A stretch of DNA of 64,000 nucleotides from an uncultured Rhodothermaceae bacterium (lineage in GTDB: Bacteria; Bacteroidota; Rhodothermia; Rhodothermales; Bin80). The stretch is taken from contig CAZCYQ010000012.1 of the NCBI GenBank assembly GCA_964503085.1, positions 2,821 to 66,820 of the forward strand. The letters run 5' to 3'. The notes under the pieces were generated by a model that ran no database searches, was not told where the DNA came from, and saw only the letters and a list, made by a program, of their open reading frames with translations. Position numbers and translations under genes: made by a program. Position 1 is the stretch's first letter. Every line of letters starts with the position of its first letter. This document shows positions 20,889 through 59,521 of this stretch, one piece after another.

Positions 20889-21185
20889 AGTTAAAAGTCC
20901 GAATCAGTTGAATGGGGGTTAAAGCGAACACCGAAGACTGGCAACACGTGATGTTGTGTAGTGAAGAAACTGGCTCAGGAAATTCACTTTCAGTTGACGA
21001 GTGCAGCATTTTCGGCCTCCGCTAGCAACATCCAAACAATTATCGTGCCAGGAGATTTTCTACTTTGTAAAATGAGAAACTCACACTTAACTTTTTGCGC
21101 TCTCAAGACAAATCGGAGCCGAGTATCCGGTTCAGGATACTGAAGCACGTAACTGGTTCAACTTTTACGGGCGAATGCTCTACGG

Positions 21186-21610: not shown

Positions 21611-21624
21611 TAGGGTCGCGCAGA

Positions 21625-28550: not shown

Positions 28551-28778
28551 ATGGCAACAACAGAACAGCGCTTTCAATCTCTCTTGGAGCAGCACCTTGG
28601 TATAAGTGACCCAGATGCAATAAACTCCAGTGCCGCGGATCTCGGGATTAACTCAGTAGATGCCGTGTCCTTCCTGAAGGAAGTTTGTAAGGAGTTTAAT
28701 GTTAACATCTCGCCCGACGATGCTGTAAAACTTGGGAGCATGCGGGCGGTTGTCAGCCATATTGAAGCAGCTGGATAG
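28551..28778 (+). CDS. Stand-alone acyl/peptidyl carrier protein
   Basis: 75 aa from ATG 28551 (the track opens at 28461). It has a four-helix-type sequence with attachment motif DLGINSVDAVSF; Ser35 is at nt 28653-28655. Confidence 0.7.
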   Translation: MATTEQRFQSLLEQHLGISDPDAINSSAADLGINSVDAVSFLKEVCKEFNVNISPDDAVKLGSMRAVVSHIEAAG

Positions 28779-28994
28779 CCCCGGTTGGTGAGTAGGTCTT
28801 ATTGTCGTGGGTTTCTCTTTGGTGATCCTCCAAAGGGCCGAGGGGGTCCATTATTGCTTGGCTACTGTCAGGGATGTCAGGTTGCCCTATTGGGGTGTCT
28901 GGTAAGGCCGTGTGCTGTTCGTATGGTGTACGAAGAGCCGGGGAGGTGCGCATGAGGTACCGCTCATTGGATTCCTGAATCACTTTATCGAAGA

Positions 28995-29933
28995 ATGATG
29001 AAGCCATTACAGGAACAAATGGCGGTTGAGGGCAGAAATTGGGTCGTACCTAGCCCGGAGTCTGCCCATGAGGTACCCATGCATGACGGTTCCTCAGTCG
29101 TTATTCGCCGTCATGGGAATCCAGAAGGTCCGCGCCTTGTTTTAAGTCATGGGAACGGTTTCGCGGTAGATCTCTACTATCCTTTTTGGTCGCTTTTTCT
29201 TGAGGACTTTGATGTTATAGTATATGATCTCAGGAATCACGGCTGGAACCCTGTTGGGGATGTGAAAAACCACAATCTTCCGACGTTTGCACAGGATCTT
29301 GAGATTATTCTTGATGCAGTTGACCGGCATTATGGCAGCAAACCAAGAATAGGGATTTACCACTCTTTGACGGCTCTTGTAGCTGTACAACCTCATATCA
29401 GACCGAATCTGTTTTCAGGTCTAGTTTTGTTTGATCCGCCCATTTGCAAGGGGGGTAGGGGTTATGCCGAATTTGAGGCCGCGGCAAGCCGTAATGCCGA
29501 GTTGACTAGGCTGCGCGCCAATAAGTTTGCAACCAAGGAGCATCTTGCAGAGATTATCCCCTATCTGCCGAGTTTTCAGTTGGTTGTTCCAGGGGTTTTT
29601 GAGCTCTTGGCAGAAACTACATTACGCGAATCCGCAGATCACGAGGGATATGAACTGTGCTGTCCGCCCGAGTATGAGGCGCGGATACTGGAATTCGCGG
29701 GGAGCTTTGCAGTTCTTGCAGACTTCGATCACATTCGGTGCCCAGTGAAGGTCCTCGGAGCTGACCCCACGTTACCGTACTCCTATTTACCAACGTTTGA
29801 TCTAAGCTATATTGTAAAGTTGGACTACGATTTCTTACCTGAATCAACACATCTTCTCCAGCTCGAAAAGCCTGGCCAATGTGCTCAAGTCGTGGTTGAC
29901 TATCTCAGGAAGCACAACCTCATGAAGCCTTGA
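28995..29933 (+). CDS. Alpha/beta-fold hydrolase (candidate thioesterase or acyltransferase of the PKS locus)
   Basis: 312 aa. Oxyanion-type LVLSHGNGF and nucleophile-elbow-like GIYHSLTAL. A late His lies in PESTHLLQLEKP. Confidence 0.65.
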   Translation: MMKPLQEQMAVEGRNWVVPSPESAHEVPMHDGSSVVIRRHGNPEGPRLVLSHGNGFAVDLYYPFWSLFLEDFDVIVYDLRNHGWNPVGDVKNHNLPTFAQDLEIILDAVDRHYGSKPRIGIYHSLTALVAVQPHIRPNLFSGLVLFDPPICKGGRGYAEFEAAASRNAELTRLRANKFATKEHLAEIIPYLPSFQLVVPGVFELLAETTLRESADHEGYELCCPPEYEARILEFAGSFAVLADFDHIRCPVKVLGADPTLPYSYLPTFDLSYIVKLDYDFLPESTHLLQLEKPGQCAQVVVDYLRKHNLMKP

Positions 29934-30678
29934 TTGAATTGGAATAGGCTCATTTATTCGTGCGTCACCTGCAAAACAGGGCTGGCATAATTTCCATGGC
30001 AGTGCTACTGCAGGCGGTCTAAATGATAACGATCTCCTGCGCCAGTTGAATTGAAGAATATTCGTGAATTTGAGTGCAGTATGGTCTCTTACATGCTTGA
30101 TTTATCCAGTGTCTTTCCGGCAAAGATCTGCCACATCAGGATTTGTGGACTATTGCTAAATGGAGATGAACATTCTTTCTTCCGATTCAATCCAGAATGT
30201 ATGATGTTGGAACAGGTATAGGGGCGGAGCAATGCGGTTGAATTGACTTCTTGCGAATAGCTCGGAGGTACCATTGCTGAGTTCCGCTTTGTAGCCGTTG
30301 TCAAGGTGTGAAAGAGGAATGTCTGGTGGCAGAAGGGGATTTTATTCTACGGCTACTTGACATTCCCAGGAGCTCCGCATCGACACCAATTTCTTCTCGA
30401 AGTATCTACCCATGCCGACCATACATTCATGTAACTCATCCAGGATCGGGCAGTTGTACGAGGCAAGAAGCGAATTGGAGATCTGACCAAATGAGTCTTA
30501 TTGCGGTTGTTGCGTTATCTTACAGTCTCGGTACAACGTCAGTAGCGCCTTGATATGGATAGAATGACTATTCATGTGAAAGCAACTCCCTCGGCTACTG
30601 TGCAGCAGATGTATTTGGTCGTTGAGCAGACTGATTGGTATGATAATCAGAGTTAGTTAACTGAATTTCTAGATCAAG

Positions 30679-33600
30679 ATGAATCAGGATAAAACTCCCC
30701 TCGCGATTGTAGGGATGGCATGCAAGTTTCCAGGTGCCGCAAGTATCCAGGAATTTTGGCATTTTCTCGTTTCCGGCCGGAATTCTGTGATGGAAGTCCC
30801 AGTGGGAGCGGGTAATAGGCGAGTTGACGTTATGTTTGCAGACATTCCAAACTTGCCCGATGCATGCCACTTTTGCTCATATCTCGATGATATTGAGCAG
30901 TTTGATCCGCAATTCTTTCGAATTTCACCCGTTGAGGCTAACTGGCTAGATCCACAGCAGCGGATGATGCTGGAAACCAGTTGGCGGGCCCTTGAGGATG
31001 CAGGAATAGATCCACTTGGTCTGAAAGGTAGCCTCACAGGGGTATATACCGGGATCAGTAATTATGAGTACAGGATGCGGATTGTGGAGTCCAATCATAA
31101 GCCTGCGGATGCGGCTTCCAGTCTCTACGCGATGTCTGGAACCAGCATGAGCGGTCCAAATGGGCGCGTATCTTTCTTTCTGGGTCTTCGTGGGCCGTCA
31201 AAAGCGATAGATGCTGCATGTGCTTCGTCTCTGGTTGCAGTGAACGACGCGGTATCTGATCTACAGCGGGGTAAGATAGATATGGCCATTGTCGGTGGAG
31301 TGCAGAATATTTTGAGTGGTCATGTGTTTAAGATTCGTGCAGATGCGGGAATACTAGCCCCGGACGGACAATGCAAAGTGTTTGATGCATCGGCGAATGG
31401 TTATGTACGGGGCGAGGGATGCGGGGTTGTTGTATTGAAGCGTCTGCACGAAGCCGAGGCGGACGGCGATAAGGTCTGGGCAGTGATTAGGGGTTCGGCG
31501 GTAAATCATGGAGGGGACAGTGTGGGCATGACGGTTCCGCACACACCTGCTTTGGAGCAGGTAATGGGTCAGGCACTCATGGATGCGGGAGTCACTGCAG
31601 CCGAAGTGGATTATGTGGAAGCACACGGCACGGGGACATCAGTAGGCGATCCCATTGAGCTCGAAGCAATGTCAGCTGTATATGGTCAGGGACGAGAGTC
31701 GGATCGACCGCTGCTTGTGGGATCAGTGAAGACCAATATTGGTCATCTTGAATCCGCAGCCGGGATCGCTGGCTTGATCAAAGCTGTGCTTGTTCTACAG
31801 CGTGGGGTCATTCCAAAACACCTACATTTTCATAACCCCACGCCGGCTGTGGACTGGGATAAGATGCACTTGCGTGTAACTTCGGAGATGATGGATCTTC
31901 CGGCGTCCAATGGGAGACCACGTCTTGCGGGCATCAACTCTTTTGGAATATCTGGCACCAATTCCCACATTATTTTGGAGGAGTATCTTGCTAAAAATGG
32001 AACGTCAAATGAGCAGAATCGGGTAATATATTTGCCTCAAACCGCGTCAGCGTCAGGGGAGCTTGAATCCCCATTGTCCAATGGAGAGGTTACCCCGCAG
32101 CGTCAAACACGGCTCCTTCCCTTATCTGGTAAATCACCGGCCGCATTGCAGTCAATCGCTGAGAATTATGTGCTGTGGCTGAATGAGCGCGGGAAAGAAG
32201 TTACACTGAATGGTTCCGCAGCAGCACCATTATTTGCAGACATGGCGTGGACGGCAGCGGTGGGGCGAAGTCATTTTGAACATCGCTCCGGCATAGTTTT
32301 TCACGATGAGGCATCACTCAGACAGAAACTCGCGGCTCTATCTGTTTCGGCTGACAACATCCATTCTCAATCCGCAACCACAATAGCGTTCGCCTATACC
32401 GGACAGGGAAGCCAGTGGACCGGTATGGGGCGTGCGATCTATGAATGTGAACCGGTTGCACGGGCGGTGTTTGATCGATGCGAAGCGATATTCAAGGCCG
32501 AGCGAAAGGTCTCACTTTTGGACGCGATTTTTGGACATACCGATTGTGATTTAAGCAATACCGCATGGGAACAACCGGCTCTTTACGCATTGGAGTGTGC
32601 ACTCACCGCCCTCTGGGCAAGTATAGGAATTCAGCCCTCTGTGGTGATTGGACATAGTGTTGGGGAGTTGGCGGCTGCACAGGCGGCGGGGGTATTCAGC
32701 TTGGAAGACGGGATGCGGTTTGCAATTACACGAGGTGCTCTGTTTGCAGAAACAGACCCTGGTGCAATGGCTGCAGTTTTTACTTCCCCCGCGCAGGTAG
32801 CCTCCGCGGTTGAGGAGATAAACGCATCAACACCGGGTATTGGATTGAGCGTTTCGGCGAATAACGGTACGCACCAAGTTGTTAGTGGCCCGATCCCCCA
32901 GATCCAGTCGATCATCGAACGTTTTGAATCCGAGGGTACCCGAGTCAAACGACTGAATACGTCCAAGGCGTTTCACAGTGCATTGATGGAGCCGGTATTA
33001 GATACTTTGGAAGCGTCTCTGAGCGAGATTGCGATCCAGGCTCCTTCGCTGAAAGTAGTAAGTAATTTAACAGGGGAAGTAGTGGGGTCCAGTCAGACAC
33101 TTGATGGTGCTTATTGGCGACGGCACGCCCGTCAAGCAGTTGCGTTTGCATCTGGTGTTCAAACAATTTCTGAGCTTGGAGTTGATCTGATAATTGAAAT
33201 TGGTCCGCGTCCGATACTGACCAATATGGTGGCGCTGGCTTGGCCGGAGTCTGAGAGACCGCCATCCATCATTTCAAGTCTCCAGGTGCCCTCCGGTGAT
33301 ATACCGGAGAATGCGGCGAAGAGCGATTTTGAACAGGCTGTTGCTCAGGCGTACCAAGCGGGACTGACCATTGAATTTGAAGGACTCTTTACGGGCGAGG
33401 ATCGGCGGCGCATTCAGTTGCCGGGCTATCCGTTCCTGCGTGATCACTACTGGATCAGAGAGTCAAAGAGGCGCGGCTTCAGTGCAGGCGATCATCCCCT
33501 ATTGGGTTCGCGGCGTGATTTTGCTAGTGGTGAAGTGGCGTACGAAACGGAGGTCTTTCGGTCAAGTCCGAATTGGCTGCAAGATCATCAGGTGTTTGGC

Positions 33601-36600
33601 CGGGTCATTGCCCCCGGCGCACTGTATGGTGCCATGGCAGCCTCGGCATGTCTCACTGAGGGAAGTGGATTGGTGATCGTGGATGACATGCAGTTGCACA
33701 ACGCACTAGTGTTTCCAGAGCAAAAACCCAGTGATAGTGAGGACGATAATGGGCGGGAAGTGCAGATTCTTGTTGCCCCTGCAGAGGCCGAAAGGCCCCA
33801 GCGCATTCAGATATTCAGCCGGGGAGAGGGAGAGGATTGGGTAATGCACGTTGAGGGCAATTTGTCTTCTGATACCGCGATGCCGGAAGAAAGTGGTCAG
33901 GTTAACCTGGAAGACCTGAAGGCCGGGATGTCTACCGGAAGCGCTTCATCTTATTACCAGGCTAGAGCCGACACAGGAATTGATCTGAGATCCTCCTTCC
34001 GCACACTCAAGAGATTTTGGTATAAACCGGGAGAAGCAGTAGGGGAAGTGTCCTTCCCTGATACAATTGAAAGTAATGAATTGGATATTCACCCCCTGAT
34101 TCTGGATGGGTGTTTCCAGGTTGTAGCTGCCGCACGTAACCCGGGCGGAGTTGAAGGAGAGACGACGTATCTACCATTTGGCTGGGATCGCCTCTGGTTA
34201 TCAGGACGACTACCGGACAGTGTGGTTTGTCATGTCAGAATGAATGAAGTCCCTAAGGGGGCAAAAGAAAAATCAGGTGCCACCGCGGAGATAATGAGCG
34301 CCGAACTGCGCATCTATGACACGAGTGGTACTCTGATCGGTGGCTTAAGCGGGTATATTGTGAAGCGTGCGACCCGGGGAGCGTTGCTTTCTGCCGTCGA
34401 AGATATTGATGATCTTCTGTACGAAATCCTCTGGCGTGAAAGTCCTTTAGTCCCGGCACTATTGCCTGCGGATTTTCTTCCATCCCCGGGAACGGTTGCG
34501 GCAAATTCTGGGCTTCTGTCGGCGTATTTAAGCGAAGAAGGAGTTCAACCCGAAGAGAGGAATGCTCTTCTGGATGATCTGGAGCGGTGGTCTCGCTCGC
34601 GTGCGCTTGCAACCTTGGAGGAACTGGGATGGAAGCGTAAGCAAGGGGACATTATAGAATCGGAGGTTCTGCGGAAACGCTTGGGTGTCATTTCGGATCA
34701 CGAGCGCGTCTTTCGTCGAATGCTTGAGATGCTGGCCAAGTCTGGGATCCTGGAAGAGAAAGATGGCTCTTTCTTAGTCAGAAATGCATCTGGAGATGCA
34801 TTGCCCGATGAAATGCCGGCAGATCTGGAAGCGTTTGCCGATGGGATGGCTGAGCGGTTTCCTCATGGCACAACTGAGGTCGGGCTTTTTCGGCGTTGTG
34901 GAACAGCTTTGGGCGAAGTGCTTCGTGCTCAGAAGGATCCACTGACACTGCTTTTCAGTAGCGGAGATCCGACTCCGGGAGATCTGTACCTCAAAGCGCC
35001 AGTGGCTCGAGCGGCAAACCGTATTCTGAAGGAAACGGTAGCTGCGCTTGTAAGCGAATTACCCGCCGAGCGCCACCTTAGGATTATTGAGGTTGGTGCG
35101 GGCACAGGCTCTGCCACCGCCGCGATCCTTCCCGAACTCCCGGAGGGGCGGTTTGATTATATGTATACCGATATTTCGGCGGGCTTCTTTTCGGAGGCGG
35201 AGGCACGATTTGGGGGTAAACCTATGGAATACCGCCCGCTGAATATCGAGAATGATCCTGTAGGGCAGGGCTTTGAGATGCACAGCTATGATTTGCTGAT
35301 TGCCTCCAACGTGCTGCATGCCACACGATATCTTCATGAGACGCTTGAGTACTGTCGGGATCTTCTCGCACCATCTGGTCAATTGGTAGCGCTTGAGAAC
35401 CTGAGTGGGCAGGGCTGGATGGATCTGACGTTCGGGCAACTGGACGGCTGGTGGCGATTTGCCGATGACTACCGTCCACACCATGCTTTGGCCAATCCGG
35501 CAGTATGGCGGCGTGCACTCAGCGACGCAGGTTTTGGTGAAGTGGAGATTCTGGGGATTGAGGAAACTGATTCAACCAGAAGACACGACAAGGGGGTGAT
35601 CGTAGCTCAAGGTCCCACCGAAATACAGGAACGTACCGGGGTTTGGGCACTGGTAGCCGATCACAATGGGACCGCCCAAGGTCTTGCAGAAGACTTGGTC
35701 TGCAACAACCAGGCAGTCGTACTCGTGGATGCTGGTATAGCAGACTCCAAGAATCCCGCCCTTGAATTAGAGGAACCTGGAAAGACCCAGGTCACCATCG
35801 ACATTAATTGCCGGGAGTCGTGGGAAGAGTTGCTGCGAAGCATTTCCAAAGATTTGCCGCTGAAGGGAGTTGTGCATCTTGGTGCACTTGATGGCGCAGG
35901 TCCAAATGCTTCAACGTATGAGATGGCACAGGATACCAGGCGAATCGTGGAGAGTGCGCTGGTACTGGTACAGGCAGTAATAGACACCAATGTCATACCG
36001 GACAAAGGCATCTGGTTTATTACACAGGGCGCCCAAGTGCTGGAAAGGGAGTTCACAGGCCAGCTAGCTGGTGCGGCATTATGGGGATTCGGTAAAGGTG
36101 TATCCCGGGAATTGACGCATCTGCAGACAAGAATGATTGACCTGGATCCAGCCGAAACTGCCGGAAAACCCGATCTGGTGACGGAGCTGCTCAGTCCTGA
36201 CCATGAAAATCATGTTGCCTATCGTAATGGACGACGAAACGTAGCACGTCTGGCCAGAGAGAATGTTGGCTTGGAGCGTCTCAGTTTTCCAGATGACGCT
36301 CCTTGGGTGCTTGCCCCAGACCCAGACGGCGTAATTGAAAACATCCACGTCAAGACGCTGTCTCATCGGGGATTGGAACCGAAGGAAGTTCGCGTCGCAG
36401 TCAAGGCCGCTGGTCTTAATTTTTGGGATGTATTTCGTTCTCTCGCATTCATTCATGAGGGAAATCTAGGCAGGGAGGTATGTGGAGATGTACTTGAGGT
36501 AGGCTCGGAGGTGACAACTGTTTCGGTTGGTGATCATGTAGTCGGGTTGGGGTTCGGTGCATTCGCAGCGGAAATGGTGACACATGGAGACCTTGTCGCG

Positions 36601-39600
36601 CTCGCGCCAGAGGGGTTCTCTGTATCGGAACTGGCTACGGTGCCGAGTGCTTTCGTTTCAGCTGCGCTGTCCTACGAGTTCTCGGGTTTGGAGGCTGGTG
36701 ATCGGGTGCTGATTCATGCCGGAGCGGGCGGTGTGGGTTTGGCTGCCATTCAGTTGGCTCAGGTCGTAGGGGCCGAAGTTTTTGCAACGGCGAGTGCTCC
36801 AAAACAGGAATATCTACGTTCGCTGGGGGTGGAGCATGTGTTCAATAGCCGCGATACACTTTTCGGAGCAGAAATTCTTGAGGCTACAAATGGTGAGGGA
36901 GTTGACGTAGTACTGAATAGTCTTACGAGCGAGGGTTTCATTGATGCGAGTCTGTCATGCCTTGTTCAGGGAGGCCGATTTGTAGAATTAGCGAGACGGG
37001 ATATTCTGAGTGAAGAAGAAATGGCTGTCGTTCGCCCAGATGTGAAGTACGCCATTCTTGAACTAGATGTACTCAAAAAAACGGACCCCGAGTGGGTTGG
37101 CCGGGTTCTCAGGAGCCTACTGAAACAATTTAGCGAGAGAAGTCTAACGCCCATTCGTCATAGCAGATGGCCGTTGGCAGAAGCAAGTGCGGCTCTGCAA
37201 TTTATGCGGTCCGCCCGCCATCTTGGCAAAATTGTAGTCACGACATCAGCCCTGGTAAGGGGGCAGTTAAGAGGGGATCGAACGTATTTGGTTACTGGCG
37301 GTCTGGGAGGAATCGGGCTTGCTGTCGCAAACTGGTTGGCGGATCATGGAGCAGGCGCCATCGTGCTGAACGGTCGGCGCCCACCGGAAGGGGAGGCACA
37401 GGAGGTCATTGATGCCTTGCAGGCGCGTGGCATTACCGTGCGAGTGGCTCTTGCAGATGTGACGGATCTAGCCGCAGTGGACACAATGCTTGCGGATATA
37501 CGCCGGGAATTGCCGCCCCTTGCCGGGGTAATCCATAGTGTAGGCGTATTATCAGACGGTGCTTTAGGGAACCAGACTTGGGATAGGTTTGAGCAAGTAT
37601 TGTGGCCCAAAGTAGTAGGTGCATGGCATTTGCATCGTGCTACTGCAGATTGTGATCTGGATTTGTTTGTTCTTTTTTCTAGTCGCGTAGGGGTCATGGG
37701 GAATCCGGGACAGGCGAATCACGCGACTGCGAATGCATTCTTAGATCAGCTTGCTGCGCACCGTCGTGCCATTGGACTTCCAGGTCAGGCGATTGCCTGG
37801 GGGGCCTGGTCGGAAATTGGCGAAGCTGCAGAACGAAGGGAGAGTATTGAGGAACGGAGGGCTGCACTTGGTGGCCGCTGGTTCACACCACAGCAGGGTA
37901 TCAAGGCGCTTGATAAACTGGTGCGTGCAGATGTAACGCATTCTGTTGTCATGGCGATGGACTGGCAAGTATTTCAAAAAGCTAGTGAGGATCGGCCGGC
38001 TTTACTAGGTGATTTACTTCATGACGCTTCCGAGGAAGAAGCCGATACGACAGTCGTTCTTGAAGATCCCATATCCCAGTTGCGCAGAATGCCAGCGGCA
38101 GAACACAAGGGTCTGCTCATATCCTTCCTCCAGCAAGAGTTACAAGCAGTATTGCGCTTGCCGAGTGCTCCCTCGTCAACTGTGGGATTTTTCGACCTAG
38201 GGATGGATTCATTGATGGCCGTTGAGCTACGGAATCGGTTAAATCGCGCATTTGCAGACGAGTATGTGGCATCAAATACAGTGGTATTTGACTACCCAGA
38301 CATCAATATGCTGGCGGAGCACTTGGCAGATGAATTAGGATCACTCGGTCCTGCTCCTGCCCCGCTACAGCTTGTTACGCAACAGCAGCCAGTAGTCCGG
38401 AATGAGGAGGACGGCATTGCAGTGATTGGAATGGCGTGTCGCTTTCCTGGCGCGCCGGACATTGAGGCATTTTGGGAATTACTTGAATCCGGCGGCAATA
38501 CCGTTTCGGATGGACGCAGTGATTCTGGTCCGTGGGAGGGGGTAGTGGGGGATCCTGCTGCTGAGGATCCTATCCTGAGATGGGGATCATTTCTGGACGG
38601 GTTGGATCAGTTTGATGCAGGTTTCTTCAATATCCGTCCGATCGAGGCCCACGGCATGGATCCGAGGCAACGTATGCTCTTGGAGACCAGTTGGCAGGCC
38701 CTTGAAGATGCTGCAATGGACCCCGATTCCCTCAGGCACAGCCGAACGGGAACGTACATTGGTTTGGCAGCCAGTGAATACCGTGATTTAATTTCGGGAA
38801 GCAATCAGGAGTACAATTATCTTGGCACTGCAGGAAGTGTCGCTATCGGACGTGTAGCTTTTCTGTTGGGGCTGATGGGACCAGCTGTGGCGGTGGACAT
38901 GACCTGTGCATCTTCTTTGGCTGCAATTCATCAGGCAGCTTCTGATCTCAAGTCTGGAGATGTAGATCTTGCTCTGACGGGAGGTGTCCATGTTGTTCTT
39001 TCTCCTGCGATCACAAGGTTTATGGCGGAATACGGCATGCTATCGTCAAGCGGAAATTGCCGGACATTCGATGCAAGTGCGGATGGTTTCGTTCGGGGAG
39101 AGGGCTGTGGCGTTGTAGTACTTAAGCGGCTAAGTGAAGCCGTATCCGATGGGGATCGAATATGGGGTGTCATTCGCGGTTCTGCATTGAATCAAAATGG
39201 TCCGAGTGCTTCGCTTACTGTACCGAGCGGTCAAGCACAGAAGCAGGTGCTTGAAGATGCGCTTGGTCGAGCTGGAATTCCGCCTTCGGAGGTTGACTTT
39301 CTGGAAGTACATGGGACCGGTTCCCAATTGGGAGATCCGATTGAAGTGAACTCAGTTGCTTCCGTATATGGTAGGGATCGTGAATCAGATCGCCCACTTT
39401 TACTTGGAACGGCAAAGACCAATATTGGGCATCTTGAGTCTGCGGCAGGAGTTGCGGGCCTCATTAAAGTGTTATTGGCTATGGAGCGGAGAGTGATCCC
39501 GAAGCATTTGCATTTTGAGGAACCGAATCCGCATGTGGAGTGGGGTCAGTTGCCGGTTCAAGTCACATCGGAGAAAATAGAATGGCCAAGGCGAGCTGAC

Positions 39601-40929
39601 CGGCCACCGCGGGCGGGAGTTAGCGCTTTTGCAATCTCAGGGGCGAACGCCCACGTAGTGGTTGAGGGTTACAATGTACCGGGCGATACGGGACTTAGTG
39701 TTCCTATAGGTTCGCCAGAATATATTGCTGTTCCCAATCTGAAGATGGGAGTGAACCTACCAGATCCTGTAGACGAGGATCAGCGGCGTTTGAGGCTACT
39801 GCCCCTATCCGCGAAATCAAACGAGGCACTACAGGCATTGGCGGGAGGGTACCTTTCCTGGCTGGATGAGCATGTCAAAGAGCCGTCCGAGCAGGACTCG
39901 AACGGGTTACTGTCAGACATGGCCTGGACGGCAGCAGTGGGAAGGAGTCACTTATCCCATCGTGCCGGTATTGTATACGAAGATGAACGGTCGCTACGAA
40001 ATGGACTGATGAGCGTCGCCGGCACGAATGGAAGATTACCTGTTCCTGCAATAGCTCCAAAGGTAGCATTCGTCTTCAATGCAGAGGAGACTCTAGGACT
40101 TGAAATGGGAGAAGAATTGTATCGTAGCGAGCCAGTGGTGCGTGCAGTCCTGGATCGTTGTGATGAGCTACTTCAAGGAGAACTCGGAGGCTCCCTACTG
40201 GATGTGATGTTTGGGCGTTCAAGTAATCTTTCCGACTCGGAGGTATGGCGGTCCCCAGCCGTTTTTGCCCTCCAATGCGCCCAGGTTGCGCTATGGGAGA
40301 GTGTCGGGGTTTCTCCAGATGTGGTCTTCGGGATCAATACGGGGGAACTAGCGGCTGCGTATGCGGCCGGCGTTTTGAAGCTTGAGGATGGATTGGTCCT
40401 TGCGGCGCGGTGCACTGAACTGATGAATGGAAATCTCGAAAGCGGGAACGCCCAAGCTATCCCGGCGGAGGTAACCTTCGCACCACCATCCACCCACATG
40501 GTGAGTAGTGTGACAGGCCTGCAGGTAAGCCCCGAGATATCTATGGACGCAGCGTATTGGACCCGACGGGCGCGTTCACCCGTGGCATTTGGCAAATGTG
40601 TTGCAACCATTGCGAAAATGGGGGTGACTGCCGTAGTGGAAGTTGGTCCTGACATGCTCTTGAAGTCAAAAATTCTTTCAGACTGGCCAAAGGCCGCACA
40701 GCAGACTACGAATGGTGTACAGGTGCCGATTGTATTGGCAAGCTTCAAGAGACCGCGAAACGGTTCAACCGACGAATCTATGGGGAGTAGTTTTTCCCAG
40801 TCCGTTGCAAGGTTGTATGAGGCAGGTCTCAATCTGAATTATTCAGGACTGTTTGCCGGAGAAAAGAGGAGTCGAATCTCACTGCCTAGTTATCCTTTCC
40901 AACGTGATCACTATTGGTTCAAGACTTGA
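30679..40929 (+). CDS. Type I polyketide synthase, 3416 aa: KS-AT-DH-cMT-ER-KR-ACP-KS-AT(degenerate)
   Basis: KS1 has Cys181 in DAACASS (nt 31219-31221), His316 and His356. AT1 has GHSVG Ser660 (nt 32656-32658) and KAFHS His766. DH has H970 in HQVFGRVIAP and HPLILDGCFQ. The cMT motif I is IIEVGAGTG (aa 1469-1477). ER has HAGAGGVG (aa 2013-2020). KR has TGGLGGIG (aa 2206-2213). The ACP has GMDSL Ser2511. KS2 has Cys2743 in DMTCASS, plus EVHGTGS and NIGHLES. AT2 lacks its catalytic motifs. Confidence 0.95.
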   Translation: MNQDKTPLAIVGMACKFPGAASIQEFWHFLVSGRNSVMEVPVGAGNRRVDVMFADIPNLPDACHFCSYLDDIEQFDPQFFRISPVEANWLDPQQRMMLETSWRALEDAGIDPLGLKGSLTGVYTGISNYEYRMRIVESNHKPADAASSLYAMSGTSMSGPNGRVSFFLGLRGPSKAIDAACASSLVAVNDAVSDLQRGKIDMAIVGGVQNILSGHVFKIRADAGILAPDGQCKVFDASANGYVRGEGCGVVVLKRLHEAEADGDKVWAVIRGSAVNHGGDSVGMTVPHTPALEQVMGQALMDAGVTAAEVDYVEAHGTGTSVGDPIELEAMSAVYGQGRESDRPLLVGSVKTNIGHLESAAGIAGLIKAVLVLQRGVIPKHLHFHNPTPAVDWDKMHLRVTSEMMDLPASNGRPRLAGINSFGISGTNSHIILEEYLAKNGTSNEQNRVIYLPQTASASGELESPLSNGEVTPQRQTRLLPLSGKSPAALQSIAENYVLWLNERGKEVTLNGSAAAPLFADMAWTAAVGRSHFEHRSGIVFHDEASLRQKLAALSVSADNIHSQSATTIAFAYTGQGSQWTGMGRAIYECEPVARAVFDRCEAIFKAERKVSLLDAIFGHTDCDLSNTAWEQPALYALECALTALWASIGIQPSVVIGHSVGELAAAQAAGVFSLEDGMRFAITRGALFAETDPGAMAAVFTSPAQVASAVEEINASTPGIGLSVSANNGTHQVVSGPIPQIQSIIERFESEGTRVKRLNTSKAFHSALMEPVLDTLEASLSEIAIQAPSLKVVSNLTGEVVGSSQTLDGAYWRRHARQAVAFASGVQTISELGVDLIIEIGPRPILTNMVALAWPESERPPSIISSLQVPSGDIPENAAKSDFEQAVAQAYQAGLTIEFEGLFTGEDRRRIQLPGYPFLRDHYWIRESKRRGFSAGDHPLLGSRRDFASGEVAYETEVFRSSPNWLQDHQVFGRVIAPGALYGAMAASACLTEGSGLVIVDDMQLHNALVFPEQKPSDSEDDNGREVQILVAPAEAERPQRIQIFSRGEGEDWVMHVEGNLSSDTAMPEESGQVNLEDLKAGMSTGSASSYYQARADTGIDLRSSFRTLKRFWYKPGEAVGEVSFPDTIESNELDIHPLILDGCFQVVAAARNPGGVEGETTYLPFGWDRLWLSGRLPDSVVCHVRMNEVPKGAKEKSGATAEIMSAELRIYDTSGTLIGGLSGYIVKRATRGALLSAVEDIDDLLYEILWRESPLVPALLPADFLPSPGTVAANSGLLSAYLSEEGVQPEERNALLDDLERWSRSRALATLEELGWKRKQGDIIESEVLRKRLGVISDHERVFRRMLEMLAKSGILEEKDGSFLVRNASGDALPDEMPADLEAFADGMAERFPHGTTEVGLFRRCGTALGEVLRAQKDPLTLLFSSGDPTPGDLYLKAPVARAANRILKETVAALVSELPAERHLRIIEVGAGTGSATAAILPELPEGRFDYMYTDISAGFFSEAEARFGGKPMEYRPLNIENDPVGQGFEMHSYDLLIASNVLHATRYLHETLEYCRDLLAPSGQLVALENLSGQGWMDLTFGQLDGWWRFADDYRPHHALANPAVWRRALSDAGFGEVEILGIEETDSTRRHDKGVIVAQGPTEIQERTGVWALVADHNGTAQGLAEDLVCNNQAVVLVDAGIADSKNPALELEEPGKTQVTIDINCRESWEELLRSISKDLPLKGVVHLGALDGAGPNASTYEMAQDTRRIVESALVLVQAVIDTNVIPDKGIWFITQGAQVLEREFTGQLAGAALWGFGKGVSRELTHLQTRMIDLDPAETAGKPDLVTELLSPDHENHVAYRNGRRNVARLARENVGLERLSFPDDAPWVLAPDPDGVIENIHVKTLSHRGLEPKEVRVAVKAAGLNFWDVFRSLAFIHEGNLGREVCGDVLEVGSEVTTVSVGDHVVGLGFGAFAAEMVTHGDLVALAPEGFSVSELATVPSAFVSAALSYEFSGLEAGDRVLIHAGAGGVGLAAIQLAQVVGAEVFATASAPKQEYLRSLGVEHVFNSRDTLFGAEILEATNGEGVDVVLNSLTSEGFIDASLSCLVQGGRFVELARRDILSEEEMAVVRPDVKYAILELDVLKKTDPEWVGRVLRSLLKQFSERSLTPIRHSRWPLAEASAALQFMRSARHLGKIVVTTSALVRGQLRGDRTYLVTGGLGGIGLAVANWLADHGAGAIVLNGRRPPEGEAQEVIDALQARGITVRVALADVTDLAAVDTMLADIRRELPPLAGVIHSVGVLSDGALGNQTWDRFEQVLWPKVVGAWHLHRATADCDLDLFVLFSSRVGVMGNPGQANHATANAFLDQLAAHRRAIGLPGQAIAWGAWSEIGEAAERRESIEERRAALGGRWFTPQQGIKALDKLVRADVTHSVVMAMDWQVFQKASEDRPALLGDLLHDASEEEADTTVVLEDPISQLRRMPAAEHKGLLISFLQQELQAVLRLPSAPSSTVGFFDLGMDSLMAVELRNRLNRAFADEYVASNTVVFDYPDINMLAEHLADELGSLGPAPAPLQLVTQQQPVVRNEEDGIAVIGMACRFPGAPDIEAFWELLESGGNTVSDGRSDSGPWEGVVGDPAAEDPILRWGSFLDGLDQFDAGFFNIRPIEAHGMDPRQRMLLETSWQALEDAAMDPDSLRHSRTGTYIGLAASEYRDLISGSNQEYNYLGTAGSVAIGRVAFLLGLMGPAVAVDMTCASSLAAIHQAASDLKSGDVDLALTGGVHVVLSPAITRFMAEYGMLSSSGNCRTFDASADGFVRGEGCGVVVLKRLSEAVSDGDRIWGVIRGSALNQNGPSASLTVPSGQAQKQVLEDALGRAGIPPSEVDFLEVHGTGSQLGDPIEVNSVASVYGRDRESDRPLLLGTAKTNIGHLESAAGVAGLIKVLLAMERRVIPKHLHFEEPNPHVEWGQLPVQVTSEKIEWPRRADRPPRAGVSAFAISGANAHVVVEGYNVPGDTGLSVPIGSPEYIAVPNLKMGVNLPDPVDEDQRRLRLLPLSAKSNEALQALAGGYLSWLDEHVKEPSEQDSNGLLSDMAWTAAVGRSHLSHRAGIVYEDERSLRNGLMSVAGTNGRLPVPAIAPKVAFVFNAEETLGLEMGEELYRSEPVVRAVLDRCDELLQGELGGSLLDVMFGRSSNLSDSEVWRSPAVFALQCAQVALWESVGVSPDVVFGINTGELAAAYAAGVLKLEDGLVLAARCTELMNGNLESGNAQAIPAEVTFAPPSTHMVSSVTGLQVSPEISMDAAYWTRRARSPVAFGKCVATIAKMGVTAVVEVGPDMLLKSKILSDWPKAAQQTTNGVQVPIVLASFKRPRNGSTDESMGSSFSQSVARLYEAGLNLNYSGLFAGEKRSRISLPSYPFQRDHYWFKT
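30697..31983 (+). other. PKS domain KS1 (ketosynthase, catalytic triad intact)
   Basis: From IVGMACKFPG to GTNSHIILEEY. The C-H-H residues are present. Confidence 0.85.
32371..33273 (+). other. PKS domain AT1 (acyltransferase, malonyl-type xAFH motif)
   Basis: Motifs FAYTGQGSQWTGMG, GHSVGE and KAFHS. The post-AT linker YPFLRDHYW lies at about 33427-33453. Confidence 0.8.
33490..34383 (+). other. PKS domain DH (dehydratase)
   Basis: Motifs HPLLG, HQVFGRVIAPG and LILDGCFQ. Confidence 0.75.
34876..35598 (+). other. PKS domain cMT (SAM-dependent C-methyltransferase)
   Basis: Motifs IIEVGAGTGSATAAIL, YDLLIASNVLHAT and APSGQLVALE. The boundaries are approximate. Confidence 0.7.
36361..37263 (+). 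other. PKS domain ER (enoylreductase, MDR family)
   Basis: Motifs VRVAVKAAGLNFWDV, LIHAGAGGVGLAAIQLA and GKIVVT. Confidence 0.8.
37276..37833 (+). other. PKS domain KR (ketoreductase catalytic subdomain; expected catalytic Tyr is His2348)
   Basis: YLVTGGLGGIGLA is present. FSSRVGVMGNPGQANHATANAFLD occurs where the canonical motif is GQxNYAAAN. Confidence 0.75.
38086..38313 (+). other. PKS domain ACP
   Basis: FFDLGMDSLMAVELRNRL, with Ser2511 at nt 38209-38211. Confidence 0.85.
38410..39678 (+). other. PKS domain KS2 (catalytic triad intact)
   Basis: Motifs IAVIGMACRFPGAPD, DMTCASS, EVHGTGSQLGDP and NIGHLESAAG. Confidence 0.85.
40051..40929 (+). other. Degenerate AT-like domain plus post-AT linker, ending the protein
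   Basis: FVFNAEETLGLEMG replaces GQGxQWxGMG. GINTG (aa 3218-3222) replaces GHSxG. The small subdomain carrying xAFH appears to be deleted. The protein ends YPFQRDHYWFKT*. Confidence 0.75.
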
Positions 40930-41019
40930 GCTTCTCCGGCGTCTCAGTAGCTCGTTGATGAGGTACCCATTTCGGGATCTTGTCTCCAATAATACTCATG
41001 TCCGCGTAGGTTCTCTTTT

Positions 41020-42190
41020 TGGGCCTTCAACTATTTTAGCGAAGCGGTTCTTTTTTGAACCCCTTCGGGATAGAGGTCTAGTCCTCCGAGATAGAAGCAA
41101 TCGCATTGGCGAACCGTTCCTTATTTCGAAAGCCGCGGCTACGGATTTTGACGGTTTTGATTCGACTGTTGATGCTTTCAGCGGGGCCGTTACTGGCTTT
41201 TAGGACGATCGCACTGATGATTCCCCAGAGGTGTGCTTTGATGGTTTGGGGGCTTTTTTCATGGGTTTCAGTCGGCAGCGCATCGCTCAGGACAGCCATT
41301 TTTCCCAGCCCTTGCGGGCCCAGGTACGACTGACATAATGCCACAGCTTCTGGGAGGTTTCCTTGATCGCCCAGGCCCTGGCAGTTTTCAGCGAACTGTT
41401 CTTCAACGACTGAAACCGCTTCTTTTGCTTTTCGGACATATTCTGCATATTGGTCAGGCAATCACACTTGGCGCCGTTAAGATCGTCCACACCCGCTTTC
41501 GCCAATTCCTTGTTCTCCTGTCGACGAACCTTGTCCACTCGCTCCGAGATACGCTTCGCGACACGAAAACGGTCAAAGGCAATCTTCTGGTCTGCCCCTG
41601 AGACACATTCCCGCGTTGCACCGATGTATGCGGGCCGCATATCCATGCTCACACTCTCAATCTTAGCCAATTGGACTGGACTACATTGATCGTACCAATG
41701 CTTCAGCGTCTGCTTTGTACGAGCTTCCCCCACATATACCACCGTACCTGTGGCAGAATCCGACACGATCATGACGTAATTCTGCCCTTTTCAAGCGGAG
41801 GTCTCGTCCACGCCAATCTGAGTCGGCGATGGTTCCGATCTTCATGAAGCCCCCGTTTGACCGCGCGATTCATAATTCTGTCAATAACCGGGCGAGTCAC
41901 CCCCAACAAACGGGCAATCGTTGAGATGCTCGTCTCTTGCAACCAGTCAATTACCAAACGCTCAAACTCAAAGGTTACCCGAGCACACGGAGCGGCCCAG
42001 GGAACCCTGGTCGTCCGTACACCATGTTCTGGACTTTTCGCACGATGGAGGTCCGTGACGATCTGCGTTAAATCCTCGCCATATTTGTTGAAGCCCCCTC
42101 TTTTTAGGCACCTGTAAGCTTAAATCACATTTCGCACAAATACCTCCCGCAAGCACACAAACCTCCAACCTCACAACTTTAATCATACGA
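41020..42190 (-). pseudogene. ISL3-family transposase, broken by frameshifts and a probable internal deletion (IS ends not resolved)
   Basis: The pieces lie in three frames. These are VPWAAPCARVTFEFERLVIDWLQETSISTIARLLGV (N-terminal/HTH), SVSMDMRPAYIGATRE...AFDRFRVAK (DDE core), and NGPAESINSRIKTVKIRSRGFRNKERFANAI. A further shift gives YLGGLDLYPEG, the typical ISL3 C-terminus. Confidence 0.75.
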
Positions 42191-42265
42191 TTCCAGTTAT
42201 ATATAATGTCATGTACTCATTCCTATCCGCAGCTTGCCTTAGTGTGTCATAAATCAGAGATTCCT

Positions 42266-42781
42266 ATGGAACCGAACAACAACACCCCGAAAGACCAAGA
42301 AATCTTGTGGGCCAAAAACGCACAGATATTCTTAGACCTGTGCAAGGATCAACACCACGTTTTTGACGAGCATGACAGCAAGTTTACTGTCAGGGCGATG
42401 GGAATTGCCACATTTAGCGTGGCGTTGTTCGGTGCAGGTGCATCATGGATAGACCCACAAAAAGTTGGAATGTTGGAATGGGGTTTTCTTACGGCAATTG
42501 CTGCAATTGTTCTCACAGTGATCTCTATTGCGATGGCCTCAATTGTAAAGCCCCACCTTTGGAGTCAACCGGGTGATCTTTCCGAATTCAACAAGATTGT
42601 TTACAGTAGCTCCCATGCGGACTTTCTGGCCAGCGTTGCTGCTGCGTACATGAAATCAGTGTCCGAAAACACTCCTAGCCTAGATTCACGGGGTAATAAA
42701 CTACAAATAATCGCTAAGTTGATCCTTGCGGAAGTAGTGTTGTTCGTCGTATTTAGGGTTTGTCTTTTGTTCCCCGGCTAG
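42266..42781 (+). CDS. Hypothetical 3-TM membrane protein (171 aa)
   Basis: Starts at ATG 42266 (MEPNNNTPKDQ). Hydrophobic helices are MGIATFSVALFGAGASWI, WGFLTAIAAIVLTVISIAMASIV and a C-terminal IIAKLILAEVVLFVVFRVCLLF. I recognise no catalytic motif. The gene is AT-richer than its neighbours by eye. Confidence 0.55.
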   Translation: MEPNNNTPKDQEILWAKNAQIFLDLCKDQHHVFDEHDSKFTVRAMGIATFSVALFGAGASWIDPQKVGMLEWGFLTAIAAIVLTVISIAMASIVKPHLWSQPGDLSEFNKIVYSSSHADFLASVAAAYMKSVSENTPSLDSRGNKLQIIAKLILAEVVLFVVFRVCLLFPG

Positions 42782-43064
42782 TATTCCTACCATCCTTGAG
42801 ATGCCGCACCGTTGGTATATGGGTTATATTAGGCCTATTGACAGGCGTTGGTGACTTTGGGGTTTGCGTGTCTGGCCGTGGAGATTCAGACGGTGTGTTA
42901 TTTTCCTGCTGTTTGCTCATGGCTTACCATACTTTGGTATATGGCTGGACGCGGTGAACCGAATATAAGGATCATTGCATACTGTGTCAACCCTTCTCGC
43001 CTTCCTTACTAAGTAAGAGAAACATCTCTAAGTATTGAAGCACCATGGATACAATTCACCGACA

Positions 43065-43724
43065 TCATACAACTTGGAATAACCTTTTAGCCATTTCCAT
43101 TTTTTCATATAGAGCTTTTGAAGTTTGTGCTATAGAGAGGCCAGGTAACGGTTCTCCAGTTGCACGATTAGGAAAATAAGCCGATATTAGGCCTGCAACA
43201 TATATCTTGTTTTCTTCGTTCCTGAAGATAACGGGTCCCCCGCTAACGCCATTTATCGCTACACCATCTATCAGATACACCTCGTCATGAATCCCAAAAG
43301 CACCAGCCCCTCTACTTATCTTGCCGGAGAAGAAGCACAACTCAAGTCCAGCAGGGAAACCCAGCCAGCCTACCTCCTCCCCAACATTGAGAGAGATGTC
43401 AAATGGGAGAAGTTCTACAGGGCTGCGAAGAAGTTGAAGGCTACTCTTCCTAACCAAGAGGACAGCGTGATCTTGTTTCCGTGGGTTAAATAGAATGGTT
43501 CTATCTTTTTCTCTATATAAATACGGCTTTTCCTCCTGACTAAAGTGAATTACTATAGACTCGTCCCATTTAGCTGCGTGTTCAATTACATGACGTGCTG
43601 TAACAATGGCATGAAATTCAAAGTCTTCGGGAAGAGAGAGAAGGAATCCCGTTCCCTGACCAGAGCGAGTCTCAATCTTTACCACAGCAGGGGAAATTTT
43701 TTCTACTACGGTTGCCCAATTCAT
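43065..43724 (-). CDS. Trypsin-like (S1/Trypsin_2) serine protease without a signal peptide
   Basis: 219 aa. The triad contexts are VTARHVIEH (His), KQDHAVLLV (Asp) and INGVSGGPV (Ser). The N-terminus SPAVVKIETRSGQGTGFLL is typical of DegP-like protease cores, but there is no PDZ domain. Confidence 0.75.
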   Translation of the reverse strand: MNWATVVEKISPAVVKIETRSGQGTGFLLSLPEDFEFHAIVTARHVIEHAAKWDESIVIHFSQEEKPYLYREKDRTILFNPRKQDHAVLLVRKSSLQLLRSPVELLPFDISLNVGEEVGWLGFPAGLELCFFSGKISRGAGAFGIHDEVYLIDGVAINGVSGGPVIFRNEENKIYVAGLISAYFPNRATGEPLPGLSIAQTSKALYEKMEMAKRLFQVV

Positions 43725-44331
43725 TTATGATCAAGGTATTTTTTCTTTGGTCGTGGTTCAACGAATCGAATATAACTAAAACTCCATTCCCGTCCATAAC
43801 CTGTGTGCTCCGGTTGAACTGGCCCACCATTCCAAGTGGAGTGGGCCACCTTACAAATCAGTGTTCCGGAGCTAATGTTTAGGGATTCTGGCTGGGATTG
43901 TTATTTTAGCAGATAAGTGCCCTTTCGAATCAGTTTGGGGATCAAGCACGCCCCATGAGGCGCCAAACCACTGAAAAAGCACGATATCGGCTATATTTTG
44001 CAAGAGGCTCCTTGGCTGGTAATTCAGGCTAGTCTTGGAATTCAAGAATTCTGATGGGAAATTCAGTAATATTATTCCACCTGCCAGTGATAGAGCAGGT
44101 CGCTGTGAGGCAAAGGGGAAATCTTATCATTCAAAATGTCCTACGCAACCGGTTACACGTGCGTTTTACTTGTGTGTTTATAGGACTTTCTCCAAAAGAG
44201 GAAATGCCTTGTAGGCTCAGTTAATGTAAATTGCGAGTGTGAGGGACAAGTAAGACTTTAGCCATTATGCTCCACTGCGGTCAGCTTGCGAATGATCTGT
44301 GATTAATCTTAGAGGGACACAACAATTCATT

Positions 44332-45384
44332 ATGAATCGACGCGAATTTACACAACTTACCGCTCAGGCCGCTGGCGTGGGGCTGTTTTCAACAAACATC
44401 CTTATCAAACAGACTGAACCCGACGAGATCATTGGTCACGGTGACTTCCGTTACCGTGTACATAGGAGTTGGGGACAGCAGGATCCAAGCCTCGTGCCCG
44501 TTAATAACTGCCACGAAATGGTTCAGGACAGCGCAGGACGCCTAATCATGATTGGCGATGAAACGCGCAATAATGTATTGATATACGACAAGTCGGGCAA
44601 TATACTTGATACTTGGGGCAGTGAGTATCCTTATGGGCACGGCCTGACACTATTGAATGCTGGTGGAGAGGAATTCCTGTTCATTTGTGATAATGGTTTT
44701 GATGGAAACCCGCAAGTTGTCAAGACCACACTGGACGGACGCGTAGTTCTTAGTTTGCCCCATCCACATGAAGTCGGAGCTTACGCAGAGTCTGATGCCT
44801 ATCATCCAACGGAAACCGCTATTGGACCGAATGGGGACATTTACGTAGCCGATGGCTATGGTTCGCAATGGGTTCTCCAGTTTAGTGCCGCGGGCGAGTA
44901 CATTCGAAAATTTGGAGGAAGGGGGGATGAGGATCATCAGTTCCAAACAGTACACGGTGTGTGCGTAGATCTGCGTGATCCAGGTGCACCATCTCTGATA
45001 TGCACGAGTCGGGCGCACAACGCCTTTAAGCGGTTTTCTCTCAATGGAGATTATCTCTCAACGATCTTTCTGCCTGGTGCGTATGTGTGCCGCGCGGTGA
45101 TTCAGGGAGAGATGTTGTATTCAGGTGTGTGCTGGTCAAGGCTCCGTTATCTGAATCAGACGCCAGATTCCGGATTCGTAACGATTCTGGACAAGAACGA
45201 TCGCGTGGTTTCGAATCCTGGAGGAACCCCACCCGTCTACGAAAATGGGGTTCTCCAGCTCATGTTACAGGACGAGCCCATTTTCAATCACTGCCACGAT
45301 GTTTGCGTGGACACAGACGAAAACCTGTATGTTTGTCAGTGGAACGCAGGCAAGACTTATCCGATCAAGCTGGAGCGGATTTAG
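44332..45384 (+). CDS. Tat-signal six-bladed beta-propeller (NHL-repeat / amidating-lyase-like) protein
   Basis: Starts at MNRREFTQLTAQAAGVGLF (twin-arginine motif). It has repeated G..YVADGYGS and H.VCVD propeller-like motifs. Confidence 0.55.
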   Translation: MNRREFTQLTAQAAGVGLFSTNILIKQTEPDEIIGHGDFRYRVHRSWGQQDPSLVPVNNCHEMVQDSAGRLIMIGDETRNNVLIYDKSGNILDTWGSEYPYGHGLTLLNAGGEEFLFICDNGFDGNPQVVKTTLDGRVVLSLPHPHEVGAYAESDAYHPTETAIGPNGDIYVADGYGSQWVLQFSAAGEYIRKFGGRGDEDHQFQTVHGVCVDLRDPGAPSLICTSRAHNAFKRFSLNGDYLSTIFLPGAYVCRAVIQGEMLYSGVCWSRLRYLNQTPDSGFVTILDKNDRVVSNPGGTPPVYENGVLQLMLQDEPIFNHCHDVCVDTDENLYVCQWNAGKTYPIKLERI

Positions 45385-59499: not shown

Positions 59500-59521
59500 T
59501 TGTGTGGTGTTAGACTGTCTT

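Follow-up and report, generated by a model that had tools for sequence, protein, structure and literature searches.

A Probable Sup-Type Polyketide Synthase Locus in a Rhodothermales Genome and Its Relatives in Sponge-Associated Bacteria

What is made by a type I polyketide synthase (PKS) that combines one complete reducing module, ordered as in fatty acid synthase (FAS), with a second, partial module, and to which family does such a protein belong? This question is raised by a stretch of 64,000 nucleotides from an uncultured Rhodothermaceae bacterium (contig CAZCYQ010000012.1; hereafter the window), in which a three-gene locus at positions 28551-40929 of the plus strand encodes a carrier protein of 75 aa, an alpha/beta hydrolase of 312 aa, and a type I PKS of 3416 aa. 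We regard it as very likely that the locus is a member of the Sup (sponge symbiont ubiquitous PKS) family, an assignment that rests on architecture, synteny, and distribution. The fuller reading that we favor, and consider probable, is that a Rhodothermales bacterium associated with sponges carries this Sup-type cluster in its chromosome and uses it to make a fatty acid or lipid with a mid-chain methyl branch. The family itself has been known since 2007; new here are the Rhodothermales host and the rearranged and pared-down gene set. The original prediction for this locus, which was made from the sequence alone, missed both the known family and the sponge-symbiont host.

Related loci and the Sup family

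The locus scan, which covered one genome per species, returned 80 loci with the hydrolase as the query and 78 more with the region of the second acyltransferase (AT2), resulting in a total of 158 related loci (L001-L158), all of which are found in metagenome-assembled genomes (MAGs). The hydrolase, the small acyl carrier protein (ACP), and a nine-domain PKS occur together in well over 100 MAGs from about 13 phyla, and the three-gene synteny that the original prediction had suggested looking for in other genomes is conserved across phyla. Among the lineages represented are Bacteroidota (Rhodothermales), Chloroflexota, Acidobacteriota, Gemmatimonadota (Palauibacter, Longimicrobiales), Alpha-, Gamma-, and Deltaproteobacteria, Actinomycetota, Dadabacteria, Binatia, Thermodesulfobacteriota, Nitrospinota, Latescibacterota, Spirochaetota, and Verrucomicrobiota. 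Where the source of a MAG series could be traced, it was a marine sponge in every case. The jk18x bins come from Caribbean Ircinia sponges (PMC9531527), and the bin prefixes RHO, COS, IRC, and APA, read as abbreviations, correspond to Rhopaloeides, Coscinoderma, Ircinia, and Aplysina, the species sampled in PMC8163846.

With each domain of the window PKS as a tblastn query, nine PKS domains in the same order were found to adjoin the hydrolase in about 55-60 of the first 80 loci. Clustering of the open reading frames (ORFs) recovered the hydrolase in 81 sources (the 80 loci and the window), the small ACP in 62, and the PKS in 55, and it additionally revealed an Sfp-type phosphopantetheinyl transferase (PPTase; PF01648) in 31 loci and a permease of the Xan_ur family with a length of ~580 aa in 25 loci. 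The same clustering of the related loci identified no tailoring genes that are conserved around the cluster. The commonest gene order is PKS, ACP, and PPTase, then hydrolase and permease; the order ACP-hydrolase-PKS of the window is common to L003-L005, and in more distant Rhodothermales (L085-L088) the ACP directly follows the PKS. Some Acidobacteriota and Gemmatimonadota have multi-module relatives (L108, L146, L147, L152) with repeated units of ketosynthase (KS), acyltransferase (AT), dehydratase (DH), C-methyltransferase (cMT), enoylreductase (ER), ketoreductase (KR), and ACP in the arrangement KS-AT-DH-cMT-(ER)-KR-ACP, and in three pairs (L074/L090, L041/L108, and L144/L146), both loci are of this PKS type and lie apart on the same chromosome.

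The Sup cluster, supA-E, goes back to Fieseler et al. 2007 and Hochmuth et al. 2010 (as cited in PMC3908369, PMC4245539, and PMC9426513). The sup PKSs are unusually small, mono-modular type I enzymes that dominate KS surveys of high-microbial-abundance sponges (PMC4245539, PMC3908369); sup genes made up >99% of the KS amplicons in one sponge study, Sup has been reported to be exclusive to high-microbial-abundance sponges, and the proposed product is mid-chain methyl-branched fatty acids (PMC4245539). MAGs from several phyla contain SUP clusters irrespective of their taxonomy (PMC9426513), and SupE of clone pAPKS18 is a permease (PMC3908369).

The locus and its relatives agree with this description in several respects. 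The window PKS has a single complete reducing module of the FAS-like kind, with a methyltransferase and with the catalytic motifs present, and its first KS (KS1) has DPQQR and HGTGT, the motifs of the Sup KS primers. The related loci are spread over sponge-associated bacteria of many phyla, mostly have a PKS followed by an ACP, an Sfp-type PPTase, a hydrolase, and a permease, and have a predicted methyl-branched fatty acyl product. The 2007 study by Fieseler and colleagues reportedly described FAS-like ORFs with an architecture suggesting methyl-branched fatty acids, with supA-E said to encode PKS, ACP, PPTase, hydrolase, and permease, and SupA is also said to have a second KS-AT.

The window differs from this picture in its host, as Rhodothermales (Bacteroidota) is not among the hosts named in the literature found, and in its gene set. 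Its order is ACP-hydrolase-PKS instead of PKS-ACP-...-hydrolase. Of the five genes, all of which occur in the related loci, it contains the ACP, the hydrolase, and the PKS with its second KS-AT, and neither a PPTase nor a permease is found within 64 kb. Pfam analysis of the 38 other large ORFs in the window identified no PPTase, thioesterase (TE) domain, or tailoring gene, and tblastn searches of the window with the PPTase and the permease of the family found nothing above noise, the spacer between hydrolase and PKS included. The PPTase for both carriers must, therefore, be encoded elsewhere in this genome, although it is linked to the cluster in most other genomes. The original prediction had noted that PPTase, TE, and tailoring genes are lacking, and this stands; in stating that there is no TE, however, it overlooked the conserved hydrolase, which has an invariant triad and is the likely release enzyme.

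Domain content and proposed route

The PKS ORF is uninterrupted over its 3416 codons, and its Pfam matches have E values down to 1e-149, which rules out chance. We took the boundaries of the PKS domains, by residue, from these matches. The N-terminal KS spans residues of about 5-432 (PF00109, E=8e-149, and PF02801, E=2e-82, with two stretches each and the best PF02801 stretch at 268-385), followed by AT (571-854), DH (939-1236), methyltransferase (1449-1619), ER (1901-2187), KR (2202-2379), and PP-binding (2484-2549) domains; the second KS starts at 2579, and a second Acyl_transf_1 stretch and a KS-AT linker domain are found from about 3040. The protein opens directly with KS1, with no loading module according to Pfam. 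This annotation bears out the domain order KS-AT-DH-cMT-ER-KR-ACP, then KS-AT, as originally read from the letters, and the ORF and Pfam analyses likewise confirm a discrete ACP (with Ser35 in GINSVD) and a hydrolase upstream on the same strand (table 1). Among NCBIfam models, only the generic "type I polyketide synthase" model exceeds its cut-off for the PKS.

Table 1. Features of the Locus and of the Adjoining Insertion Sequence Remnant, with Positions in the Window
Feature	Position	Strand	Description
Discrete ACP	28551..28778	+	75 aa; Ser35 in GINSVD; PF00550 E=1e-8
Alpha/beta hydrolase	28995..29933	+	312 aa; Abhydrolase_6 E=4e-14
Spacer hydrolase/PKS	29934..30678	.	745 bp, intergenic
PKS (SupA-like)	30679..40929	+	3416 aa: KS1-AT1-DH-cMT-ER-KR-ACP-KS2-AT2 (AT2 dead)
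KS1	30691..31974	+	Cys181, His316, His356; motifs DPQQR, HGTGT
AT1	32389..33240	+	Ser660 in GHSVG, active; KAFHS = malonyl-type
DH	33493..34386	+	His970 in HxxxGxxxxP; His kept in 48/48 aligned sequences
cMT, in-line	34579..35613	+	PF08242; SAM motif EVGAGTGSAT
ER	36379..37239	+	NADPH motif HAGAGGVGLAA
KR	37282..37815	+	NADPH motif TGGLGGIG; Lys2311, Ser2335, Asn2352 kept; His2348 replaces catalytic Tyr
Integrated ACP	38128..38325	+	Ser2511 in LGMDSL; Ser in 55/55 family members
KS2	38413..39693	+	Cys2743, His2878, His2918 all present
AT2	40069..40878	+	Acyltransferase-like; GINTG at Ser site, no catalytic Ser
ISL3-family IS remnant	41021..42097	-	DDE_Tnp_ISL3 transposase fragments, different frames, 41078-41957

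Among solved structures, the nearest to both KSs is CurL (406 bits for KS1 and 436 bits for KS2), followed by DEBS and Pik, and the nearest to the cMT is the CurJ C-MT (5thy; 225 bits over 345 residues, with NVLHAT and a downstream Glu kept), whereas matches of the KSs to solved eukaryotic synthases are lower, with about 270 bits for LovB (KS1 277) and about 250 for animal FAS. The likeness to animal FAS and to fungal highly reducing (HR) PKSs that had been seen in the sequence therefore holds for domain order, but by sequence both KSs and the cMT most resemble the corresponding parts of cyanobacterial cis-AT PKSs, so that "FAS-like" denotes domain order and not ancestry. PDB entry 7zma (E=1e-171 and 1e-187) was considered as a special match and rejected; its score merely sums two ordinary KS matches to a bimodule chain.

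We propose that KS1 would be primed by a fatty-acyl thioester from primary metabolism, because there is no loading module. AT1 would put malonyl on the integrated ACP and probably on the discrete ACP too. AT motifs of the HAFH type denote malonyl and those of the YASH type methylmalonyl specificity; the motifs GHSVG and KAFHS that the original prediction reported for AT1 are present in the sequence, as is GINTG in AT2, and KAFHS points to malonyl specificity of AT1. Across the family, AT1 has GHSxG with xAFHS or xAYHS. After condensation, the cMT, whose S-adenosylmethionine (SAM)-binding motif ExGxGxG is kept family-wide, would methylate the alpha-carbon, and reduction by KR, DH, and ER would then give a 2-methyl-branched saturated acyl-ACP.

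The reduction step is where the sequence departs from expectation. In an alignment to AmphB KR2, in which the segment GQPGYAAANAYLDALA aligns with the window KR segment GQANHATANAFLDQLA, KR His2348 (codon 37720-37722) is aligned with the catalytic Tyr of short-chain dehydrogenases/reductases. His occupies this position in all 54 aligned family members and in 126 of the 134 KR cores over all loci; the eight KRs with Tyr are found within related multi-module PKSs or PKSs that lack cMT or ER (L038, L108, L143-L145, L147, L152). The KR is nevertheless the best-conserved domain of the PKS (62-80% identity), it retains Lys, Ser, Asn, and the NADPH motif, and it bears the LxD signature of B-type KRs, as expected upstream of a DH. 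This strong conservation argues that the KR with His is functional, and if the His is catalytically competent, it would be a small but real gain for PKS enzymology.

The KR also bears on the possibility that module 1 works iteratively, like mycocerosic acid synthase (MAS) or fungal HR-PKSs, and makes a multi-methyl or partly reduced polyketide, that is, a specialized metabolite and possibly a beta-keto acid or methyl ketone. The domain order is identical to that of iterative single-module systems, MAS and LovB are among the solved relatives, the change from Tyr to His might alter or abolish reduction, and no reductive domains follow KS2, so that the last unit would stay beta-keto unless type II FAS acts on it. 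We nonetheless consider such a product very unlikely, as a purely iterative synthase needs no dedicated second KS and carrier, KR, ER, and DH are strongly conserved (most clearly the KR), and the cluster has no conserved tailoring genes around it.

Beyond the integrated ACP, the PKS continues with a second KS (KS2) and an AT-like domain (AT2) of very different conservation. The catalytic Cys of KS2 is kept in 54 of 54 family members. AT2, on the other hand, is the least conserved domain (31-51% identity), and its catalytic Ser is absent, being replaced by Gly, Asp, Asn, or another residue (e.g., GHDLG, GHGVG, GWDFG), in all but 2 of the 44 aligned members; it is therefore catalytically dead and probably has a structural role. 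The Ser of the discrete ACP is invariant in all 62 family ACPs (motif G(V/I)(S/N)S(V/L)D). This ACP, for which an alternative GTG start is possible at 28461, scores 32 bits against the model of the housekeeping AcpP (cut-off 70) and is presumed to be a SupB-like carrier for module 2. With AT2 dead and the KS2 Cys and the Ser of the free ACP kept, module 2 would therefore be made up of KS2 and the free ACP, with what is left of the AT as a structural element. The identity between KS1 and KS2 averages 56% and that within each type 64-66%, and the two form nearly clean, separate paralogous clades; the two-KS architecture would therefore be older than the spread of the family across phyla.

In the route that we favor, KS2 would accept the chain from module 1 and condense it with malonyl on the discrete ACP, which would place the methyl branch inside the chain. 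Alternatively, KS2 may be a non-elongating KS that passes the 2-methyl acyl chain without condensation to the discrete ACP, from which the hydrolase would release it or transfer it to an acceptor. The first catalytic His of KS2, on which decarboxylation depends, is Asn or Ser in 7 of 54 members (L041, L051, L052, L054, L057, L059, L064) while the Cys is invariant, and in those seven at least, KS2 may be transfer-only. The HGTGT motif of KS2 is also far more variable than that of KS1, and a dead AT2 leaves the discrete ACP with no dedicated loader. We still find it unlikely that transfer is the role of KS2 in the window, where the full Cys-His-His set is present, as it is in most members (47 of 54); malonyl could be supplied in trans by AT1 or FabD, and a 2-methyl acid would leave unexplained the mid-chain branching of the lipid class that has been linked to the family (PMC4245539).

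Following condensation by KS2, the product on the discrete ACP would be released by the hydrolase or further elongated by type II FAS, with a mid-chain methyl-branched fatty acid or lipid as the end product. The hydrolase is the sole candidate for release in the cluster and is probably a thioesterase or acyl-release enzyme. Its putative triad is Ser124-Asp257-His286, and H123, S124, D257, and H286 are invariant in 40 homologues, out of 2911 found at E<=1e-10. The AF2 model of the hydrolase (pLDDT 73) matches generic alpha/beta hydrolases with TM scores of 0.5-0.6, including the CurM TE of curacin off-loading; with regard to a specific function, sequence and fold searches likewise gave generic alpha/beta-hydrolase matches only, and NCBIfam matches were below threshold.

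The route from malonyl units and a SAM-derived branch to a hand-off to the trans ACP, as given in the original prediction, is essentially the published Sup hypothesis (PMC4245539, PMC3908369), and the synteny and motifs behind it are conserved; full saturation and one more condensation are the insecure parts, given the KR His and the loss of the KS2 His in 7 of 54 members. It may accordingly be that Sup is not simply a FAS with an added methyl group. Because the KR has His in 126 of 134 cores, AT2 is dead, and the KS2 His is lost in about 13% of members, one can picture noncanonical or no reduction, a hand-off by KS2 and the discrete ACP to the hydrolase, and a product other than mid-chain-branched fatty acids; the hydrolase may then transfer the chain to an acceptor or release a beta-keto acid or methyl ketone. 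We hold this to be doubtful.

The end of the PKS, close relatives, and neighboring genes

The PKS ORF ends directly after the post-AT linker YPFQRDHYWFKT*, which contains the motif YPFQRDHYW, and a dead insertion sequence (IS) of the ISL3 family lies just downstream. This dead IS had already been noticed, and we find that its transposase fragments are accompanied by 22-nt inverted repeats (41021-41042 and 42076-42097) as well as by a target duplication of 8 bp (CTCTTTTT at 41013-41020 and 42098-42105). An abrupt stop, an IS remnant next to it, and an AT2 without Ser could together mean that the PKS is a nonfunctional remnant of a longer assembly line that was cut by ISL3. The distances say otherwise, with 84 bp from the stop codon to the target duplication and 92 bp to the element itself. 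In the closest PKS-bearing relatives (L081-L083, ~92% nucleotide identity), colinearity with the window extends to 41015 and resumes at 44001. The IS is thus missing from them, as are a membrane ORF of 191 aa and a trypsin-like peptidase, and their PKS ends as in the window. In a 56-sequence family alignment, all members that cover the C-terminus (40-odd) stop within a few residues of YPFQRxxxW, and an AT2 without Ser is the rule in the family. Truncation by ISL3 is thereby ruled out, the ORF is intact, and we assign a negligible probability to a nonfunctional remnant; the PKS is complete as it stands, with a natural end, and the ISL3 remnant is not part of the biosynthetic system. The region that the relatives lack (41016-44000, ~3 kb) has a GC content of 0.45 and contains the membrane ORF (42206-42781), which has no family match, and the peptidase gene (43065-43724, minus strand).

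In two other close relatives, L001 and L002 (~91-93% nucleotide identity), both flanks are colinear with the window, but window positions 30028-44253, which hold the PKS and the 3-kb insertion, are missing, with ACP and hydrolase intact. Colinearity breaks at 30028, inside the spacer between hydrolase and PKS, and ~300 bp of unrelated DNA replaces the segment (11033-11340 in L001, 1734-2041 in L002). The replacement in L001 matches nothing, so that a deletion and an insertion are not distinguishable, and the AT2-region scan found no close AT2 match in either genome. The spacer itself (29934-30678) accounts for the ~750 bp of noncoding DNA in the original prediction, which had set it at the 5' edge of the locus instead of inside it; it contains no family-matched ORF, a scan for promoter and terminator motifs showed no excess, and an Rfam search of the whole window gave no match. 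The GC content is 0.53 in the PKS and 0.49-0.50 in the flanks. Because of the presence/absence polymorphism in relatives, the rearranged gene order, the lack of a linked PPTase and permease, and this GC shift, the locus can be called accessory, as had been suspected.

Several observations weigh against the reading of the locus as a Sup-type cluster for a mid-chain methyl-branched lipid. The Sup assignment rests on architecture, synteny, and distribution, and no source name among the protein search matches contained "Sup". No experimentally demonstrated product of any Sup PKS was found in the literature, and both the product and the symbiotic role of Sup remain hypothetical there. Full reduction is assumed in spite of a His that replaces the KR Tyr family-wide, the loss of the KS2 His in 7 of 54 members speaks against a universal need for condensation by KS2, and the sequence does not distinguish one round of module 1 from several. 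Finally, the window has no PPTase and no permease within 64 kb, and two close relatives keep ACP and hydrolase without the PKS.

Conceptually, this copy adds little to the family, but it offers three handles. It is compact, with three genes, and comes from a Bacteroidota host; nearly identical symbiont genomes, some with the PKS and some lacking it, are a natural contrast for lipids or transcripts; and there are defined mutational targets in KR His2348, KS2 Cys2743, ACP Ser35, and hydrolase Ser124.

Elsewhere in the window, Pfam analysis of the 38 other large ORFs identified housekeeping genes (a BatA-type operon, ParAB, LolCE-like genes, RpiA, and TonB paralogues) and a defense island. Just 3' of the locus are two tandem genes of the PF00144 beta-lactamase family (45381-48304, minus strand), adjoined by a gene for an NHL-repeat protein (44299-45384). 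A row of three paralogues with TonB_C domains (18276-22290, minus strand) contains DNA repeats that are 73-80% identical at about 20083-20387, 20503-20741, and 21610-21912. The defense-like island (56265-63993, minus strand) encodes an AIPR abortive-infection protein (56265-58100), a DUF4420 PD-(D/E)XK protein (58091-59158), and a Z1-domain protein (61924-63993), and its genes are separated by an IS21 element (IstB, 59522-60283; IstA, 60283-61833).

Comparison with other known systems

Three classes of synthase were considered and rejected. A multimodular cis-AT assembly line does not agree with one full module plus a KS-AT with a dead AT, a natural stop that is shared family-wide, and the lack of a loading module and a TE domain. 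In a trans-AT PKS, AT1 would not be integrated and intact; only module 2 is without a working AT. Polyunsaturated fatty acid (PUFA) synthases (Pfa) have tandem ACPs, a KS-CLF pair, FabA-type DHs, and a separate ER. The window PKS has a single ACP, a PS-DH type DH, and an integrated MDR-type ER, and it scores 588 bits against the PfaA model, which has a cut-off of 1010.

Fungal HR-PKSs (LovB, 7cpx) and animal FAS have the same linear order, KS-AT-DH-(c)MT-ER-KR-ACP. They are, however, eukaryotic, of much lower similarity, and without a second KS-AT, and the methyltransferase of FAS is a pseudo-domain. The curacin cis-AT modules (CurL KS-AT, 4mz0; CurJ C-MT, 5thy; CurM TE, 3qit) include the closest solved structures for KS1, KS2, and the cMT, and they share with the window PKS an in-line cMT between the DH and the reducing domains; a CurL-like KS-AT linker domain was also detected in the window. 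The curacin modules nevertheless belong to a long assembly line that has a loading module and ends in a TE, whereas the window has one module and a KS-AT stub with a dead AT on its own.

MAS and MAS-like PKSs (5bp1, 5bp4, 9d2y), which are among the best solved matches for the window KS and KR, are single-module, fully reducing enzymes that turn a fatty-acyl primer into a methyl-branched lipid. They take their methyl groups from methylmalonyl-CoA through a YASH-type AT and have no cMT, whereas the window PKS combines KAFHS in AT1 with a cMT; they also lack a second KS-AT and a discrete ACP, and they keep the catalytic Tyr of the KR. The Swf (sponge symbiont widespread FAS) system, with SwfA, SwfB, and SwfC, is likewise a mono-modular reducing type I PKS/FAS that is restricted to sponge symbionts and starts with a KS (PMC3908369). 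SwfA has the architecture KS-AT-DH-ER-KR-ACP and a KS with DPQ(I/V)R and HATGT, and downstream of it swfB encodes a reductase-sulfotransferase and swfC a radical SAM protein (PMC3908369). Pfam analysis of the large ORFs in the window identified neither of these two partners, and whereas SwfA has no methyltransferase and no second KS-AT, the window PKS has both, together with the DPQQR and HGTGT motifs.

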